Sequence record: NC_052660.1
DNA length: 64,000 nucleotides
From: Escherichia phage tuntematon
Reading direction: 5' to 3' (one strand)
The notes under the pieces were generated by a model, which ran no database searches, was not told the DNA's origin, and saw nothing but the letters and a program-made list of their open reading frames with translations. Shown piece by piece: positions 7,042-64,000 of the stretch (position 1 is its first letter; every line of letters starts with the position of its first letter). The position numbers and the translations under genes are program-made.

Positions 7042-7263
7042 ATGGGTGTTTTTGCAGGTATTGTTGCAGTGGTAAGCTTTTTTGTTATTGCTTTTATGCT
7101 TAGTTTGATTCCAGCTTGGTTACTGTTGCTGGCTTACAACTATGTTGCTGAAGTTATGGGTCATGCAGATATCACTGTCCCAGTAACCTTCTGGACCGTG
7201 GTTTGTGTTTCGTTTATTCTGGCTGTATTACGAGGAATCTTTTCCTCTCATTCAACAAAATAA
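7042..7263 (+). CDS. small membrane protein (two predicted TM helices)
   Basis: 73 aa, strongly hydrophobic; GAGGAG RBS. Confidence 0.5.
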   Translation: MGVFAGIVAVVSFFVIAFMLSLIPAWLLLLAYNYVAEVMGHADITVPVTFWTVVCVSFILAVLRGIFSSHSTK

Positions 7264-8804: not shown

Positions 8805-8893
8805 GAGTTTATACCGAGATGGAGAGCAACTTTATTGCTTCTCTGGAGATTTCAAACACAGATGTATTAATAGCCAAAACGAGGAAAGCAAAT

Positions 8894-9331
8894 ATGAAAA
8901 AACTAGCCCTGATTTTAATTGGTTGTATCTTTTTAACAGCTTGCGAGGATGAAACAAATCCTGCACAATACCAACAACCTCCTCAACAATACGCTCAACA
9001 AGGATCTGACGGAGATACAACTATTATCAACAATGGTGGCGGTTCTAGTAGTAGCGGTGTTGGTGAGTTTGCTACAGGTATGTTGTTAGGGCATATGATG
9101 AGTGGCGGTAGTAATCGTAACAGTGGGGATTATAACGATAACAGAACGATTATTAATAAGCATTATAATACACCTAAACCGAAAACTAATTTTTATGGTA
9201 AGCCTAAACAAGAGATAAAAACTTATGAAAAGCCGAGACAAACTTTTAAAACAAATAGTAGCTATACAACTCGTAAATCTTACAATAGCCCTTTAAGTAA
9301 AAAGAGTTCATCTCGTAGCAAGCGACGTTAA
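8894..9331 (+). CDS. putative lipoprotein
   Basis: MKKLALILIGCIFLTAC has a signal peptide with lipobox (LTAC); Gly/Ser-rich and basic KPK repeats follow; GAGGA RBS. Confidence 0.55.
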   Translation: MKKLALILIGCIFLTACEDETNPAQYQQPPQQYAQQGSDGDTTIINNGGGSSSSGVGEFATGMLLGHMMSGGSNRNSGDYNDNRTIINKHYNTPKPKTNFYGKPKQEIKTYEKPRQTFKTNSSYTTRKSYNSPLSKKSSSRSKRR

Positions 9332-13232: not shown

Positions 13233-14027
13233 ATGTCCGAGAAAATCAGCCTGAAAAAACGTCAAGAAAACCTTGCTTTCTCTCTGAAAAAGAATAAGAA
13301 CCTGAATGAAGGTAAGATTGTTCTTCGTGTAGCATGTGCTCTAGATATTTCTGGTAGTATGCATGGTCTATATTCTAGTGGGGTAGTGAGTGATTTTGTA
13401 GGTAAACTGCTTCCTTTTGGTATGCTGTTCGACGATAATCAACAAATTGATATGTGGGCCTTCAATACGAGTTCCCAAGAGCTTACTCCAGCAACAGCAG
13501 ATGTTTACGATGACTATGTTGGTAAATGTATGCGTAATGTTCGTATCGGAGGTGGAACAAATTACGCCCCTGTAATGGCAGATATCTACGATGAGTATTT
13601 TGGCACTGTTACCAAATATATTACCACTAAACAAGTGGTACAAGAGGAGGCTCCAAAGAAAGGCTTCTTTAATCGTCTGCTTGGTAAAACTGAAACAGTA
13701 TCTGTAGAGCGTGAAAAGGTTGTAGCTGTATCTGAACCAGGTGCTGACGTTACCCCTGGTGTTGTATTCTTCCAGACAGACGGTGAGAATGGTGATCCTA
13801 GTGCTGTTCGTCGTCTTATTGAAGAGAATAAGAATAAACCTATTTATTGGTTCATGGTTGGCGTTGGTAATGAGAAGTTTGGCTTCCTGAAAGAACTGGC
13901 AAATGCTTATGATAATGTTGGTTTTATTGGCATTAAAGATTTAGACTTGACAGATTCAGAGCTTTATGACAAACTCTTATCTGAAGAGTTCGGAGAGTGG
14001 GTTGTTAAAGTAGGTGCTAAAAAATGA
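13233..14027 (+). CDS. von Willebrand factor A domain protein (TerF/TerY-like)
   Basis: MIDAS motif VACALDISGSM and FFQTDGENGD; N-terminus MSEKISLKK...FSLKK resembles TerD-family N-termini. Confidence 0.75.
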   Translation: MSEKISLKKRQENLAFSLKKNKNLNEGKIVLRVACALDISGSMHGLYSSGVVSDFVGKLLPFGMLFDDNQQIDMWAFNTSSQELTPATADVYDDYVGKCMRNVRIGGGTNYAPVMADIYDEYFGTVTKYITTKQVVQEEAPKKGFFNRLLGKTETVSVEREKVVAVSEPGADVTPGVVFFQTDGENGDPSAVRRLIEENKNKPIYWFMVGVGNEKFGFLKELANAYDNVGFIGIKDLDLTDSELYDKLLSEEFGEWVVKVGAKK

Positions 14028-14272
14028 TCGACGAGCTTGCCTCTCAAGTCATAGAAAATTATTGGCGCGAGAGAGAAGCTTTCATTATGCGCAGTCTCAA
14101 AGAGTATTTCATTGGGACTGTGCGAATGGAAGATATTGTAAGTAGAGTAGAGATTCATGTATGGCCCGATTATGAAGAATGGGTTGACAAAGAAAATGAA
14201 AATGCTATAATTCTTCGTATATACAAACCGGAGATAACATTAGGAGGAAGAAGTGTTAAACTTCGAAATTGA
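14024..14272 (+). CDS. hypothetical small protein
   Basis: 82 aa ORF; start overlaps the upstream stop. Confidence 0.4.
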   Translation: MIDELASQVIENYWREREAFIMRSLKEYFIGTVRMEDIVSRVEIHVWPDYEEWVDKENENAIILRIYKPEITLGGRSVKLRN

Positions 14273-14522
14273 TGAGCAAAAAGTAAATAAACGATGCCTT
14301 ACCATTAAAGATTTGGATGTAGGAGATACTTTCGTCTATGAAAATGCATTTGACGAAAATGGTTTAGACCTTAGTGAAATCATTGTTTATTTAAAAGTAG
14401 ATGATGGGGAAAATGATTATTCTGCTGTAGAACTAAACCATCATGCACAATTAGTATCAATCCAAAACACATCTAAGCTTTTGGAAGTAGAATTGACTGT
14501 AACTGGTATTACACTTAAATAA
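14253..14522 (+). CDS. small protein, paralog of 12953-13231
   Basis: GTG at 14253 after AGGAGG; same conserved blocks as the ORF at 12953. Confidence 0.45.
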   Translation: MLNFEIDEQKVNKRCLTIKDLDVGDTFVYENAFDENGLDLSEIIVYLKVDDGENDYSAVELNHHAQLVSIQNTSKLLEVELTVTGITLK

Positions 14523-14537
14523 TAGAGGAGACAAAAG

Positions 14538-15140
14538 ATGACTGATAAAATTTCCCTGAAAAAAGGCTCTAGCGAAAAAATTTCCCTGAAGAAGGTTGCT
14601 CCGGCTCTGAAAGAACTGCGCCTGGAATTCTCTTGGAAGTCTGATTCTAAACTGGATCTGGATGTAAGTGCACTGGTTTGTCGTCACAATGCCGCTGGCA
14701 ATCCTGAAATGCTGTCTGCACGTCATCTTGTTTGCTATGCTAACAAGTTTGATCCTGAACGTTCTACCTTCGCTGGTGACGATGTTCGTGATGGCACTGG
14801 CAGCATGGAGCAGATTGATATTACTCTGGCTAAAATCTCTCCTGATGCACAAGAGATTGCCTTTGTTCTGACCATTGATGATGATACAGGTCTGAAACGT
14901 TTTGGTCATGCTTCTGAAGGTATGCTTAAAATCTTCGACTCCGAGCGCAATGTGGAAATTCTGGATTTTGACTTCCTGGCTCCTGAAGTAGCTGGTAACA
15001 CAATCTGCCACGTGGCTTCCTTGGTTCGTGAAGATGGAGAATGGAAGCTGAAAGCATATGGTGTAGGTAAAGCTGGTCTGGATATTTGTGATGTGGTGAT
15101 GGCCTTCGGTGGTAAAAAAGAATGGTATGAATGTCCGTAA
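14538..15140 (+). CDS. terD: TerD-family stress protein
   Basis: 200 aa; N-terminal duplicated KISLKKG..KISLKK and acidic GDDVRDGTGSMEQIDITLAKISPDAQEIAFVLTI segment match the TerD domain. Confidence 0.85.
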   Translation: MTDKISLKKGSSEKISLKKVAPALKELRLEFSWKSDSKLDLDVSALVCRHNAAGNPEMLSARHLVCYANKFDPERSTFAGDDVRDGTGSMEQIDITLAKISPDAQEIAFVLTIDDDTGLKRFGHASEGMLKIFDSERNVEILDFDFLAPEVAGNTICHVASLVREDGEWKLKAYGVGKAGLDICDVVMAFGGKKEWYECP

Positions 15141-15158
15141 TAATTAACAAATGATTTT

Positions 15159-15178
15159 GAGGGGGAGAAATCCCCCTC
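15159..15178 (+). terminator. stem-loop after the TerD-like gene (terminator-like, weak U-tract)
   Basis: GAGGGGGA-gaaa-TCCCCCTC perfect 8-bp hairpin immediately after the stop. Confidence 0.45.
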
Positions 15179-15207
15179 TTGCAATAAAGCCTCTATCGTG
15201 TTATACT
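15179..15207 (+). promoter_or_regulatory. sigma70-like promoter
   Basis: TTGCAA, 17-nt spacer, TATACT, followed by AGGAGG RBS. Confidence 0.5.
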
Positions 15208-15239
15208 AGAAATTCGTTAACTTAAAAAGGAGGCAAAAT

Positions 15240-15761
15240 TTGCTGATAAAAAACTTTGTAACAGTTGCGTTACTATCCTTAACTGCTTTTACATTTACAC
15301 CTGTTGTGGCGAAAGCCGAAGCTGCAAACGTAAAAACCGCTAAAGTAGTTCACAAATGTACAAAGCAATATAATGATAAAATTCTATTAGCTTGTGCAAT
15401 TTACGCAGAAGGTCGCGGTCTGGGTAAAAAAGGAATGAATGCCGTTGGGAATGTGGTAATCAACAGAAGAAATGATACCTACTTCCCTAACACAGTCAGA
15501 GGAGTCTTGTTCCAGAAAGGGCAATTCTCATATGCGAAAACTTTTAACGTAACAGAGAAAGATAAGTGGCAGGAAGCAAAAGCAATAGCGGAGCGTTTAC
15601 TTTATTTAGAGAAACATTTTCCTGAATTGCGGTCTGTTTTAGATGTTACTAAAGGTGCTCTATACTTCAAGAAACGGAATATAAGAACACACTGGGAACG
15701 TGATATGCGTCTTGTTTATCGAGATAAAGTGCATGGTTTCTATCTACCAAAGGGGAGTTAA
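15240..15761 (+). CDS. secreted cell-wall hydrolase (SleB/CwlJ-like Hydrolase_2 family)
   Basis: TTG start after AGGAGG; N-terminal signal peptide; CAIYAEGRG...NVVINRR...FQKGQFSY resembles the SleB-type domain. Confidence 0.5.
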   Translation: MLIKNFVTVALLSLTAFTFTPVVAKAEAANVKTAKVVHKCTKQYNDKILLACAIYAEGRGLGKKGMNAVGNVVINRRNDTYFPNTVRGVLFQKGQFSYAKTFNVTEKDKWQEAKAIAERLLYLEKHFPELRSVLDVTKGALYFKKRNIRTHWERDMRLVYRDKVHGFYLPKGS

Positions 15762-15762
15762 A

Positions 15763-16047
15763 ATGCAAGAAGATAATACTGTTGTTGTAGCAAGTTACCT
15801 GGTTGTCGGTCTTACTGAAGAGGATGTATACTACACCCGTAAGCATTTAGAAGCATACGCTACTTTGTTTATGGAAGATGAAAAGGATGTAGATAAATAT
15901 AGCATTGACATGATCAACGACAGTATTTATCCTTGTATGGTTCTTAAAGTAGATGCTGTGTTGTGGGAGCGTTTTGCAAGGACTCATGATGCTGTAGAAT
16001 GCTCCGCAGTAATGTCTCAAAACAACATTTTAGGGGAGATTCACTGA
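15763..16047 (+). CDS. hypothetical protein
   Basis: ATG at 15763 after AGGGGAG; same frame as track ORF 15700-16047. Confidence 0.4.
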   Translation: MQEDNTVVVASYLVVGLTEEDVYYTRKHLEAYATLFMEDEKDVDKYSIDMINDSIYPCMVLKVDAVLWERFARTHDAVECSAVMSQNNILGEIH

Positions 16048-16277
16048 TGGGAGAAGTCATTGAAGTCAATTTTCGCACTAAACAGAAAGTGCAAAAATAT
16101 GTCGTTATTAAAAACATTTGCGTTGTCTGCTTCAATACAGTAATATACGACTCACGACGCGGAGAAAACGAAAATGAACCTTACATTGAAATTTCTAAGA
16201 ACAAAGGTCAATGTATTTGTAAGAACTGTGCAGTAGCTATTAAGGAGGTTGTAAATGAAAACGCTTGGGACCAATGA
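16047..16277 (+). CDS. hypothetical small protein with CxxC...CxxC (zinc-ribbon-like)
   Basis: ATG at 16047 overlaps the upstream stop (TGATG); two Cys pairs. Confidence 0.4.
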   Translation: MGEVIEVNFRTKQKVQKYVVIKNICVVCFNTVIYDSRRGENENEPYIEISKNKGQCICKNCAVAIKEVVNENAWDQ

Positions 16278-16446
16278 AACTGGCGAGATCTCTCTTCAAG
16301 AAGTGACAAACGACAAACTGATTAAACTACGGGACGTAGCCCGTGACCATCTCCAAGAATCTTTTAAAGAATATATGGAAGCACGAGATCGTGTGATCCA
16401 AATCCAACAAGAAATGATTAAACGTGGGATTGTAGCCGACAGTTAA
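16255..16446 (+). CDS. hypothetical small protein
   Basis: 63 aa ORF overlapping the upstream 3' end. Confidence 0.35.
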   Translation: MKTLGTNETGEISLQEVTNDKLIKLRDVARDHLQESFKEYMEARDRVIQIQQEMIKRGIVADS

Positions 16447-16462
16447 TATAACGGAGGGGAGA

Positions 16463-17026
16463 ATGATTTATTATATTACTCCCTATCTGACAGGAAATAT
16501 CGGCAAGGCTATCAATGAAGCCATTGCCGTTCTTCCAGATGATAGTTGGGTGTGTTTAAGAGATACCGATACAATGTTCCTCCTACCTGATCAACCATCT
16601 ATGCTTGAAGAGCTTGTTATGTCAAACCCGCCTTTTGATGTAATAGGTGCAACTTGTAACAGGTTAGGCAGTGGTTATCAGCTTTTCTCTAACCAAATTA
16701 ACGATGATCCAGATATTCTAAACCATATAGAATATGCTAAGATTGCAAGAGAATATCATAAAGTAAATGTTGAAGAAGTTCCTTTCGGAACACCTCTGGC
16801 AGGTTTCTTTTTGCTTTTTAGAAAATCATTGTGGAATGAAATTCCTTTTGAAGAAAAATCTATCCAATTCGACTTAATTTTCTCTCGCACTTTACATGAA
16901 AAAGGAAAGAGGTTAGGATTGATGCGGGGAATGTATCTGTTTCACATTTACAGATTAGGTCAAACAAATCCTCAACGGTCTATACATCATTTATTACACT
17001 GTCATGATCACAGTAAAACTATTTAG
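16463..17026 (+). CDS. hypothetical protein, possibly GT-A-like glycosyltransferase
   Basis: 187 aa; CLRDTD could be a DxD-type motif; weak. Confidence 0.3.
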   Translation: MIYYITPYLTGNIGKAINEAIAVLPDDSWVCLRDTDTMFLLPDQPSMLEELVMSNPPFDVIGATCNRLGSGYQLFSNQINDDPDILNHIEYAKIAREYHKVNVEEVPFGTPLAGFFLLFRKSLWNEIPFEEKSIQFDLIFSRTLHEKGKRLGLMRGMYLFHIYRLGQTNPQRSIHHLLHCHDHSKTI

Positions 17027-38653: not shown

Positions 38654-40141
38654 TTACACTCCATACTCGTAAGAAATGTTATCAAGGTCAAAAGAAGGGA
38701 CAACATTATAAGCAGGAACTATATTATTCTCTGTATATTTACTGTCATCCTCAGTATTAAGTTTAACATAAACACGAAGAGAAGTCAAGCGTCCAAAAGC
38801 AAGTGCTGCATAAATAACACCTTTGATTTGATCGTTCGTTACTGAAGAACCTAATTCAAAGTAAGCTTGCAGGTTTTGTAAAGCTTCTACGATGTTTTGT
38901 TTTTCTGTTCCACTTAAAGTTGTTCCGTTGACAGTTTGATAAACAAGTTTTACAGAATACATAGCAGAAGCACCAGGGGAGAAGCGAATAATTTCTTGTC
39001 CTCCATCTTCTGTTGTAACTGTTATGTTAGTTGTTCCGTGTGTCAAAGTGTTGATTGGTTTGGTTTTATAGATAACATTTGCAATTTCTTCAGCACTCCC
39101 TCCATAAACTATAGTCTGGAAAGTCATAGCTGGAGCATGTTCTTGATCATGTAACGTAGGGTTATCATAAATCTTCACCTTAGTAACACCATCTGTAAGT
39201 AACAGAGCTTTCACAATAGCTGCTCGTGTCCCTGCGTTAGCTTCGTCAACGTTGTCATTGAAACGAGAGCGGAATTCTGCGTCTGTCTCAACATCTCGAC
39301 CAGGGGAAAATGAATAGAAGTTACCACTATCAAGATAACCTGTAAAGGTAGAAGATATCCCTGTAATAGACTCCACACCAACAGGATTGTATCCTTTCTC
39401 TGCTGCAACTACCGGAATCTCACTCCACTTGGTTCCAACCGGAACACTAGCATAAAATTTAATAGGAGTTACCAGCCCCACTGGAGTATCACTGGTTAAA
39501 GAAGTAAAACCAATTGATAAGTTACCTGAATCAGAAAATACAAGACTACGATCAGCTTCTGTTAAATTCGCCTTGATAAAAGTTTCAAGATCGGTTATAA
39601 ATGTAGAAGAACCAGGTGCAAGTGTTTTACTGTTTAGTCCTCCATCCACCGCACTTTGTGCATAAAAAGTAATATTTGGAACACCTGTAGCAGTTGCATT
39701 AGCACGAGAGATTTGATAAGCTGCAATCTTAGCATTCAACATAGTTGGTGTGCTAACATAGTAGTTCATATCACTATCAGAGTTGAAGTAAATATCCGTG
39801 CCTAACTCATAAGTCCAAGCTGCTTTGTTATTACTCTTAACATAGGCATAACCTGTACTTGCTGCTGCCCCTGCTCGATAGAAACCGCGTTTAGAAAAGA
39901 TTTCGTCAAGATAAATACCTTCTGCACCATCCAGTGTTTGAGTATTATAAACACCTTGCATACCTTCCCACAATGTGTAATCTGTGTACGCAATTATTCT
40001 AAACAGTTGTCCGATCACAGTATCTTCCGAAGTGGCTGCATCTGCACCAAATGTGTTTTTTACTGCTGTCATATAATTGTTTAGAACATCGTCAAAAGTC
40101 GGGATTACAAATCCCGCATCTGTCAAACCATATTCGTCCAT
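38654..40141 (-). CDS. hypothetical structural protein (baseplate/tail region)
   Basis: 495 aa ORF in the late operon. Confidence 0.35.
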   Translation of the reverse strand: MDEYGLTDAGFVIPTFDDVLNNYMTAVKNTFGADAATSEDTVIGQLFRIIAYTDYTLWEGMQGVYNTQTLDGAEGIYLDEIFSKRGFYRAGAAASTGYAYVKSNNKAAWTYELGTDIYFNSDSDMNYYVSTPTMLNAKIAAYQISRANATATGVPNITFYAQSAVDGGLNSKTLAPGSSTFITDLETFIKANLTEADRSLVFSDSGNLSIGFTSLTSDTPVGLVTPIKFYASVPVGTKWSEIPVVAAEKGYNPVGVESITGISSTFTGYLDSGNFYSFSPGRDVETDAEFRSRFNDNVDEANAGTRAAIVKALLLTDGVTKVKIYDNPTLHDQEHAPAMTFQTIVYGGSAEEIANVIYKTKPINTLTHGTTNITVTTEDGGQEIIRFSPGASAMYSVKLVYQTVNGTTLSGTEKQNIVEALQNLQAYFELGSSVTNDQIKGVIYAALAFGRLTSLRVYVKLNTEDDSKYTENNIVPAYNVVPSFDLDNISYEYGV

Positions 40142-40383
40142 TAGTCATCCTCTTTGGTAGATTGTGATCTGCCCCAACGTAAATCAATAAGATTTTTCAT
40201 GAGGCGAGAAGGGGTTATCATGAAAACAAAAGCCCAACCCATCCATTCAGGAATTTCTTTTTCTATTCCTAAAAAGATAAACATGCCTGTCATAACCGAC
40301 ATGCCTACAGCGTTCCAGACTTTAGTAGAACTGACTTTATTATCAGGATATGTACAGAACATACCTATTAAAAATTTTCTCAT
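40141..40383 (-). CDS. small membrane protein (holin-like topology)
   Basis: 80 aa with two hydrophobic segments and a charged C-terminus. Confidence 0.3.
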   Translation of the reverse strand: MRKFLIGMFCTYPDNKVSSTKVWNAVGMSVMTGMFIFLGIEKEIPEWMGWAFVFMITPSRLMKNLIDLRWGRSQSTKEDD

Positions 40384-63842: not shown

Positions 63843-64000
63843 TTATCTTTTACGGACACTATACGGTTGGTGAAATCCGCTGTTCATTCTACTGTATCCT
63901 GTAGGAGCATTTGTTGTTGTAGGGATAGCTACTGCTTTGAAAGTATTCTCTTTTGACAGAGTATTAAAACAAGAGGCAGCAGCATCGGGAATGTCATCTT
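63843..64000 (-). CDS. 3' end of an upstream - strand gene (5'-partial; terminase large subunit only by position)
   Basis: The - strand frame is open from the window edge to a TAA at 63845-63843; location upstream of the portal gene is the only basis for a terminase guess. Confidence 0.3.
   Translation of the reverse strand, partial: DDIPDAAASCFNTLSKENTFKAVAIPTTTNAPTGYSRMNSGFHQPYSVRKR

Follow-up and report, generated by a model that had tools for sequence, protein, structure and literature searches.

The 173-aa ORF at positions 15240-15761 (+) of the 64,000-nt stretch of Escherichia phage tuntematon DNA analysed here (the window) encodes a protein that, judged from its sequence, is a SleB-type catalytic domain placed behind a predicted export signal. 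The protein is most probably exported by the Sec pathway to the periplasm, processed there by signal peptidase and independent of a holin, and we lean towards the view that it acts as a holin-independent periplasmic lytic transglycosylase, a second, accessory lysin. The gene is ordinary: it is already annotated in phAPEC8-like E. coli phages, has been so since phAPEC8 in 2012, and as a gene it is nothing new. These phages, like T4, have their lysis genes dispersed over the genome, and two of the genes, the SleB-like one among them, encode murein hydrolases.

The gene and its genomic context

The window is Phapecoctavirus DNA, ~99% identical to several phages in GenBank. The 5-kb stretch around the gene is 98.7-99.4% identical to more than 60 Phapecoctavirus (Stephanstirmvirinae) phages, including ASO2A, SKA64, EF1-1 and phAPEC8. 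A plus-strand arm (1-28165) carries replication, nucleotide-metabolism, Ter-like and glycosyltransferase genes, and a minus-strand arm (28222-64000) carries tail, baseplate and head genes. The ORF was found exactly where the original prediction had put it, with a 173-aa product and a TTG start, and the placing of the gene right after the Ter genes also held: a TerD gene precedes it and a vWA-TerF-like gene (13233-14027, PF10138) lies further upstream.

14538..15140 (+), TerD-domain protein, upstream neighbour and last gene of the Ter-like cluster (PF02342, E=3.2e-28; context only)
15240..15761 (+), CDS of the SleB-family (Hydrolase_2) murein hydrolase, export predicted; orthologue of phAPEC8 gp067, ASO2A_201 and EF1-1 gp196

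The orthologues, phAPEC8 gp067 (YP_007348567), ASO2A_201, EF1-1 gp196 and SKA64 ORF224, are labelled 'putative cell wall hydrolase SleB', 'cell wall hydrolase' or 'endolysin' in their records. On the 3' side the gene is followed by three ORFs that have neither a transmembrane segment nor a known function, and then by glycosyltransferases; four glycosyltransferase genes were counted near it. The GC content of the gene (~0.38) is like that of its neighbours, and its base composition bears no sign of recent acquisition. Rfam gave no match in 14400-16600, and PADLOC gave none either.

Transcription and translation signals

The gap of 99 nt between the TerD stop codon and the ORF holds three elements, the first of which begins directly past the stop codon.

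15159..15178 (+), GC-rich hairpin GAGGGGGA-GAAA-TCCCCCTC, 8-bp stem with no T run after it, probable terminator of the Ter unit
15179..15207 (+), predicted sigma-70-type promoter: TTGCAA (15179-15184), N17, TATACT (15202-15207), with TG at 15199-15200 (extended -10, TGn)
15229..15233 (+), Shine-Dalgarno sequence GGAGG, 6 nt before the TTG; AGGAGGC is unchanged in 4 genomes

The sequence 15141-15200 folds with a minimum free energy of -17.5 kcal/mol (z -3.2). A rho-independent terminator is annotated at the equivalent position in the ASO2A record; our own terminator scan did not call the hairpin, because the T run is missing. The hairpin is a probable terminator of the upstream Ter transcription unit, possibly a leaky one.

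The promoter abuts the hairpin. The TTGCAA-N17-TATACT promoter of the original prediction is thus present, with a TG extension in addition. A match of this quality (9/12 with TG) is common by chance, 31 such matches being found in 7 kb against 18.6+/-4.9 expected, so the credibility of the promoter rests on its location in the 99-nt gap and on its conservation. Both hexamers and their spacing are kept in PHB05 (Justusliebigvirus; protein ~75% identical) and PsgM04F (~68%), along with the hairpin, the Shine-Dalgarno sequence and the TTG start, while the surrounding sequence drifts; the -10 hexamer reads TACAAT in PHB05, and the hairpin has a conserved stem and a variable loop in both phages. 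With hairpin, promoter, Shine-Dalgarno sequence and start codon conserved together, the gene very probably stands at the head of a separate transcription unit, which the host RNA polymerase would read.

The start codon is TTG in six lineages, GTG in rV5 and ATG only in the T5-like phages, so that TTG or GTG is used in 7/8 lineages; among the neighbouring genes of phAPEC8, 26/33 start with ATG. Maintenance of a weak start across proteins with 33-37% identity suggests selection for a low dose of the enzyme.

A SleB-type catalytic domain

The protein matches Pfam Hydrolase_2 (PF07486) with 64.1 bits (cut-off 27; E=1.9e-17), its residues 62-168 covering model positions 3-100 of 100, and PHROG 938 'endolysin' with E=1e-18. 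Sequence relatives in the PDB (E about 1e-7 to 1e-6) were confined to 4f55 and 4fet, both of them catalytic domains of SleB.

15408..15410 (+), codon GAA of Glu57, predicted catalytic acid, motif Y-A-E-G-R-G; kept in 120/120 homologues
15423..15743 (+), Pfam Hydrolase_2 domain, aa 62-168; the structural domain begins earlier, at about aa 38

A single-sequence homologue search returned 18 matches, all from the subfamily, and a profile built from diverse sequences was needed to reach the wider set. An earlier structural model, made from 19 close homologues, had a pLDDT of 59.8 and was discarded. The AlphaFold2 model from an alignment of 120 sequences reached a mean pLDDT of 86.4, with values below 50 only at residues 1-14. 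A fold search with this model gave 4f55 and 4fet as the sole PDB matches at E<=0.001 (prob 1.00, TM 0.70-0.77, target-normalised). The counterpart of Glu57 in the alignment with these two structures is the Glu of their Y-G-E-S-R-G motif, a residue that we take, from the structure papers on SleB, to be the catalytic one. Within the Y-x-E-x-R-G motif, Y55 is kept in 115 and R59 in 118 of the 120 homologues; N75, R76, Q95 and F96 are invariant among them as well.

The protein was rejected as an equivalog of SleB proper. The spore cortex-lytic enzyme model TIGR02869 scored 51.7 bits against a cut-off of 236.5 (only aa 37-117 matching, on model positions 79-159), and Pfam found no PG_binding domain in the 173 residues. 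From homology to Bacillus SleB, the enzyme is most probably a lytic transglycosylase. Bacillus SleB requires muramic-delta-lactam in its substrate, which E. coli peptidoglycan does not contain, and activity of the phage protein on ordinary peptidoglycan is therefore an assumption. Phage SleB-like proteins are named amidases in several papers.

Signal peptide and disulfide

15240..15317 (+), signal-peptide codons, aa 1-24 or 1-26: n-region MLIK, h-region NFVTVALLSLTAFTF, c-region TPVVA(KA); by inspection
15357..15395 (+), Cys40 (15357-15359) and Cys52 (15393-15395), predicted disulfide just before the catalytic Glu; invariant in close homologues

The N-terminus, which continues from the c-region into Glu-Ala, has the layout of a Sec signal peptide cleaved by signal peptidase I, as judged by inspection and with a crude heuristic: a basic n-region (K4), an h-region of 15 residues (N5-F19), and then P21. 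Candidate sites for signal peptidase I follow A24 and A26 (-3/-1 residues V22-V23-A24 and A24-K25-A26), with small residues at -3/-1 and the proline at -4/-6. In 19 close homologues the c-region varies (VVA-KA, VYA-G, VIG-IA, GVA-QA, VMA-KG and others), and a permissible site is always kept. The signal region is unstructured and of low confidence in the AlphaFold2 model. Both the SleB/CwlJ-like domain and the cleavable-looking signal peptide of the original prediction were thus borne out, the former by the Pfam, PHROG and PDB matches and the latter by a standard n/h/c layout whose pattern is kept in the close homologues. A lipoprotein signal was rejected, the first Cys being residue 40, as was a Tat signal, a twin-arginine motif being absent.

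Signal-peptide-like N-termini were also seen in the rV5, Seunavirus, Henunavirus and T5-like orthologues, for example ...LSLPVVA/AP in rV5, ...TTTPVLA/KE in Seunavirus and MKAALLLVAALTFSFSSQA/SH ('SQA/S') in the T5-like phages (the slash marks the candidate cleavage site). The heuristic (a hydrophobic 10-mer, no acidic residue ahead of it, and a -3/-1 site) passes 106/120 of the profile matches and 111/150 of the family representatives (~75-90%) compared with 5/77 of the ORFs in the window. Since the SAR domains of P1 Lyz and R21 satisfy it too, it indicates export signals and not their cleavage.

The CB7 paper predicted a signal peptide on the orthologue CB7_83 and stated, as 'data not shown', that expression of this protein was toxic to E. 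coli (PMC7344957). To the contrary, a paper on near-identical phages stated that signal peptides had not been found in the phage proteins; the same paper gives the 173-aa protein as >=99% identical to the T4 endolysin structure (PMC10698182), which is contradicted by the Pfam, PDB sequence and fold matches. Because its lysin analysis is otherwise unreliable, we give it little weight on signal peptides. A literature search combining SleB, signal peptide, endolysin and periplasm yielded nothing relevant.

The cysteines offer independent support for a periplasmic location. Cys40 and Cys52 are jointly present in 84/120 homologues and jointly absent in the other 36, of which 35 have another pair instead, at positions 49 and 87. 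The two pairs are mutually exclusive and co-vary perfectly; cysteines kept or replaced pairwise behave as disulfide partners would, which suggests that both pairs form disulfides in the periplasm.

Other lysis genes

A T4-type lysozyme of 166 aa is encoded by the close relatives (EF1-1 gp90 and ASO2A_096). It matches Pfam Phage_lysozyme (PF00959), aligns with residues 3-161 of T4 lysozyme (E about 1e-48), retains the motif D-E-G...Y-Q-D...T-V-G-I-G-H and has no signal peptide, so that it would need a holin. In tblastn searches, the lysozyme was found in 63 phage records at >=95% identity and in 68 at 60-90%, and the SleB-like protein in 63 and 67, respectively; the matching counts indicate that both are universal in the subfamily. 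With a T4-type lysozyme in all relatives, the SleB-like protein is not their sole muralytic enzyme. The lysozyme gene lies between the PhoH and glutaredoxin genes, outside a classical cassette. A spanin pair of the Rz/Rz1 type (an i-spanin, and an o-spanin with the lipobox ...MMTGC) was found in the relatives immediately upstream of the large terminase gene, a position just beyond the right end of the window. The finding of spanins beside TerL agrees with Kongari et al., who grouped phAPEC8 and phi92 as one two-component spanin family (PMC6139136).

The window itself contains no other recognisable endolysin and no spanins. In agreement with the original prediction, the SleB-like gene is not part of a lysis cassette: neither a holin nor a spanin gene adjoins it, and its neighbours are TerD upstream and three soluble ORFs, then glycosyltransferases, downstream. 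The 80-aa ORF at 40141-40383 (-), which matches phrog_1322 'membrane protein', had been proposed as the only holin-like ORF of the window; this was too narrow, as the 73-aa ORF at 7042-7263 (+), with two transmembrane segments, is holin-like too. The prediction had further named a different endolysin in a canonical cassette elsewhere as grounds for refuting it, and the search for holin and spanin genes in full genomes as a check. The former holds in part: a T4-type lysozyme and spanins do exist elsewhere in the genomes of the relatives, but the lysozyme is not in a classical cassette. As to the latter, the genomes of relatives gave the spanins beside TerL, but several holin candidates with none singled out. 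These candidates came from a scan of the whole EF1-1 genome for small membrane proteins; EF1-1 gp91 (49 aa), next to the T4-type lysozyme gene, was rejected as a holin, being hydrophilic.

That Phapecoctavirus has two lytic proteins has been published before: the 2023 announcement of iGC_PHA_EC001 lists proteins with PF00959 and PF07486 (PMC10793346). The SKA64 paper, which calls the Hydrolase_2 protein the only endolysin (PMC10282059), overlooked the lysozyme.

SleB-like enzymes in other phage groups

The combination of a secreted SleB-like protein with a different endolysin recurs in T5-like phages, PVP-SE1-like phages, Certrevirus and Septuagintavirus. The T5-like phages have a lys/hol cassette and the SleB-like orf081 (= T5.083), all of these genes lying in the early region with T5-type early promoters on either side. 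PVP-SE1-like phages have a modular lysozyme beside the SleB-like protein; Certrevirus combines the SleB-like CB7_83 with an M15 peptidase or a different lysozyme-like enzyme; and Septuagintavirus has an M15C peptidase and a SleB-like protein. In the Pseudomonas phages Nankokuvirus and Pakpunavirus, the homologues have an anchor-like N-terminus and are encoded among ligase, dCMP deaminase and helicase genes.

In Vequintavirinae the SleB-like gene lies directly upstream of rIIA/rIIB, and in Seunavirus, Henunavirus and Certrevirus an ORF of 57-76 aa with 2-3 transmembrane segments is found between them. Such an arrangement resembles a cluster for lysis control, and it argues most strongly for a part of the enzyme in lysis proper, at least in those phages.

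Proposed mechanism and role

From these features we infer export, signal-peptide cleavage, disulfide formation, the bond attacked, the timing and the accessory role as follows. The gene would be transcribed from its own sigma-70-type promoter, behind the hairpin that closes the Ter-like genes, and translated from the conserved weak TTG codon, giving a low dose of enzyme. Signal peptidase I would cut off a signal peptide of 24-26 residues, and the Cys40-Cys52 disulfide would form in the periplasm. With Glu57 as the catalytic acid, the enzyme would cleave MurNAc-GlcNAc bonds of the sacculus. The T4-type lysozyme and the Rz/Rz1-type spanins encoded elsewhere in the genome could supply classical holin-dependent lysis, and the secreted enzyme, as an accessory, may nick or loosen the peptidoglycan ahead of final lysis or in support of it. 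A complete T4-type lysozyme with spanins, and no holin adjacent to the SleB-like gene, make the accessory role the most likely one. The original prediction had left the choice between a signal-peptide-dependent endolysin and a peptidoglycan-remodelling enzyme of early infection; the option of an accessory peptidoglycan enzyme is the one favoured, and that of the main endolysin is less so, given the T4-type lysozyme and spanins of the relatives.

We consider it unlikely, but deserving of weight, that the SleB-like protein is the principal endolysin, waiting in the periplasm as a signal-peptide-dependent (Lys44-like) or SAR-like enzyme until depolarisation by a holin or pinholin unleashes it, the T4-type lysozyme then being redundant or a back-up. 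Its gene is conserved throughout Stephanstirmvirinae and Vequintavirinae, whereas the partner lysin changes from genus to genus (GH24 here, an M15 peptidase in CB7/Septuagintavirus, a modular lysozyme in PVP-SE1-like phages), and the small ORF with 2-3 transmembrane segments followed by rIIA/rIIB in Seunavirus, Henunavirus and Certrevirus suggests an endolysin role in those genera. PHROG 938 and many records use the name endolysin, and the SKA64 authors, like several annotations, recognise no other; also consistent are the toxicity that the CB7 authors describe for their orthologue in E. coli (PMC7344957, data not shown) and the holin-like small membrane ORFs of the window. However, none of these ORFs is adjacent to the gene in Phapecoctavirus, a complete and catalytically intact T4-type lysozyme is kept in every member, and the T5-like homologue coexists with a lys/hol cassette. 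Moreover, a soluble, cleaved periplasmic enzyme made from a sigma-70-type promoter would have no evident mechanism of inactivation. In a variant, the N-terminal segment would stay uncleaved, as a SAR domain or a plain anchor, and tie the enzyme to the inner membrane in an inactive state until depolarisation. Gly, Ala, Ser and Thr do make up 9/19 residues of F6-A24 (~47%), which is within the SAR range; the h-region is unusually conserved, L12, L14, T15, T18, F19 and P21 being invariant in the 19 homologues; the N-termini in Nankokuvirus and Pakpunavirus are anchor-like, with acidic residues and no obvious cleavage site; and our heuristic cannot tell SAR domains from signal peptides. Against retention, Pro21 at -4/-6 and small residues at -3/-1 occur in 19/19 close homologues despite the varying c-region, which itself resembles that of E. 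coli PhoA (FTPVTKA). The h-region ahead of Pro21 is just ~15 residues long, the segment lacks Cys and, in the model, does not pack onto the domain, the T5-like and rV5-like orthologues carry textbook cleavable signals, and no holin adjoins the gene. We judge an uncleaved segment to be improbable.

Least probable of all, in our estimate, is a non-lytic role with little contribution to lysis, such as local remodelling of peptidoglycan that lets the cell enlarge or the spanins thread through, the freeing or recycling of muropeptides, or superinfection exclusion. In favour of it, host lytic transglycosylases are tolerated in the periplasm. The genes lie near replication, stress or host-takeover genes in four groups of unrelated phages (here, T5-like, Nankokuvirus and Pakpunavirus), the weak start codon has been kept, and the glycosyltransferase genes alongside would suit the recycling variant. 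Positive evidence for any specific alternative of this kind is nevertheless lacking, including a PADLOC match, and the toxicity of the CB7 orthologue (PMC7344957) points to real lytic potential.

The gene raises a question that reaches beyond this phage: many virulent phages of Gram-negative hosts keep a predicted Sec-exported SleB-type enzyme beside a classical endolysin. The broad question is which enzyme lyses the cell and what the second one is for. Models of lysis timing would be affected, since the latent period would include muralytic activity that needs no holin, and so would the choice of phage lysins as antibacterials, the SleB-type protein being small, basic and predicted to be active from the periplasmic side. 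A bolder reading, which we put forward tentatively and hold to be doubtful, is that the enzyme is not an endolysin but carries out a distinct holin-independent, dose-limited periplasmic function of murein remodelling or pre-weakening that unrelated phage groups share. If so, this function would be common to the T5-like, rV5/PVP-SE1-like and phAPEC8/phi92-like phages and to Pakpuna-/Nankokuvirus, whose true endolysins are freely swapped, and both the conserved TTG/GTG start and the disulfide pair would have evolved to hold a dangerous periplasmic enzyme to a safe level during the latent period.

Comparison with known systems

Export of a phage muralytic enzyme that depends on Sec and not on a holin has precedents in Lys44 of the Oenococcus phage fOg44 and in the SAR endolysins P1 Lyz and R of phage 21. 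All have different catalytic folds; Lys44 acts on a Gram-positive host, and the SAR endolysins keep their anchor and have a pinholin gene adjacent. Unlike in the latter, the signal of the phage tuntematon protein looks cleavable and no holin gene adjoins. The T4 gene e-type lysozyme of the relatives (ASO2A_096/EF1-1 gp90) is likewise a murein glycosidase and is present in every subfamily member, but it has a GH24 fold and is encoded ~80 kb away, outside the window.

Bacillus SleB (4f55, 4fet) and CwlJ have in common with the phage protein the catalytic fold and the Y-x-E-x-R-G motif with its Glu, and Bacillus SleB also bears a signal sequence (the 4fet entry is titled 'prepeptide'). In contrast to Bacillus SleB, the phage protein has no N-terminal peptidoglycan-binding domain, and its host does not sporulate and presents a substrate without muramic-delta-lactam.

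Closer in design are the phage enzymes rV5 ORF2 'SleB', the PVP-SE1/NINP13076 'cell wall hydrolase', CB7_83 and T5.083/AKFV33 orf081, which consist of a single Hydrolase_2 domain in 150-180 aa, have a signal-like N-terminus, have their genes at a distance from the structural ones and occur beside an endolysin of another kind, although their identity to the phage tuntematon protein is only 32-37%. The T5-like proteins differ in having the other cysteine pair and an ATG start, and the Vequintavirinae gene lies upstream of rIIA/rIIB, often with a small holin-like ORF, whereas the gene described here follows TerD and has no such neighbour. Closest of all are the genes of phAPEC8, ASO2A, EF1-1 and SKA64, which show no material difference: the locus is ~99% identical, and the neighbours, the TTG start and the length are alike.

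Start codon and cysteine pairs of the SleB-like protein

In seven of the eight phage lineages that we compared, TTG (GTG in rV5) is the start codon of the SleB-like gene, an ATG start being confined to the T5-like gene:

Window 15240-15242: start codon in tuntematon
L004:2495 (rV5), L006:2489 (NINP13076), L007:2501, L008:2501, L009:2498 (pEp_SNUABM_01): start codons in other phages

Since the TTG/GTG start is kept even though protein identity across subfamilies is merely 33-37%, the comparison suggests that selection keeps translation weak for a periplasmic enzyme that could be dangerous. Cysteines at positions 40 and 52 were found together in 84 of the 120 homologues in alignment A4, and 35 of the 36 sequences without this pair contained cysteines at positions 49 and 87. 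The two conserved pairs exclude each other (n=120) and, judged from the alignment, look like alternative disulfides of two subfamilies.

Window 15357-15359, 15393-15395: Cys40 and Cys52 codons

Phage database matches to E. coli phapecoctaviruses or rV5/T5-like phages include Acinetobacter phage ABPW7 (DNA identity 98.8%) and several "Campylobacter phage" records, whose host labels, like that of ABPW7, look doubtful.

Genomic surroundings of the SleB-like gene

In the Vequintavirinae (rV5, NINP13076, pEp_SNUABM_01), rIIA/rIIB lie directly downstream of the SleB-like gene; Seunavirus and Henunavirus carry an intervening ORF of 57 or 76 aa with two to three transmembrane segments:

L006:3024-3197, L009:3036-3266: small transmembrane ORFs before rIIA/rIIB

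Together, these genes may form a lysis-control cluster. No rIIA/rIIB were found among the annotations of EF1-1, a close relative of tuntematon. Upstream of the Ter genes, the window contains a cluster of small exported or membrane proteins (8819-9331 (+) and neighbours), including a likely lipoprotein (MKKLALILIGCIFLTAC..., EF1-1 gp209) and a protein of 81 aa (EF1-1 gp210) that bears a transmembrane segment at its N-terminus. Within ORF 14024-14272, the sequence at 14184-14211 (+) matches the sigma-70 consensus perfectly (TTGACA-16 nt-TATAAT, 12/12) and has a TG extension; ORF 14253-14522, which overlaps ORF 14024-14272, follows closely downstream of it.

Holin candidates, lysozyme and spanins

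The original prediction named a single holin-like candidate in the window, 40141-40383; it remains a candidate, but is not the only one, as 7042-7263 is a second:

7042-7263 (+): 73 aa, phrog_16065 (unknown function), phAPEC8 gp051/EF1-1 gp213
40141-40383 (-): 80 aa, phrog_1322 "membrane protein"

The former encodes two strong transmembrane segments followed by a short polar C-terminus, and a sigma-70-type promoter is annotated just downstream of it in phAPEC8. The latter, a putative holin ORF with a conserved counterpart in EF1-1 gp168, is flanked by a tail protein and a baseplate wedge gene. A lysozyme and a spanin pair were located outside the window:

L002:34545-35045 (-) (EF1-1 gp90), L013:5860-6360 (-) (ASO2A_096): T4-type lysozyme
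L003:13452-14079 (EF1-1 gp141/gp142), just past window position 64000: overlapping i-spanin/o-spanin pair

The best PDB match of the lysozyme is 7rgr, "Artificial protein L056"; because the first ~70 residues are identical, this designed protein was evidently derived from the natural family of the phage enzyme. The spanin pair features an N-terminal transmembrane segment and a lipobox (MMTGC), and the large terminase gene follows immediately downstream, the same place at which spanins were reported in rV5, PVP-SE1 and CB7.
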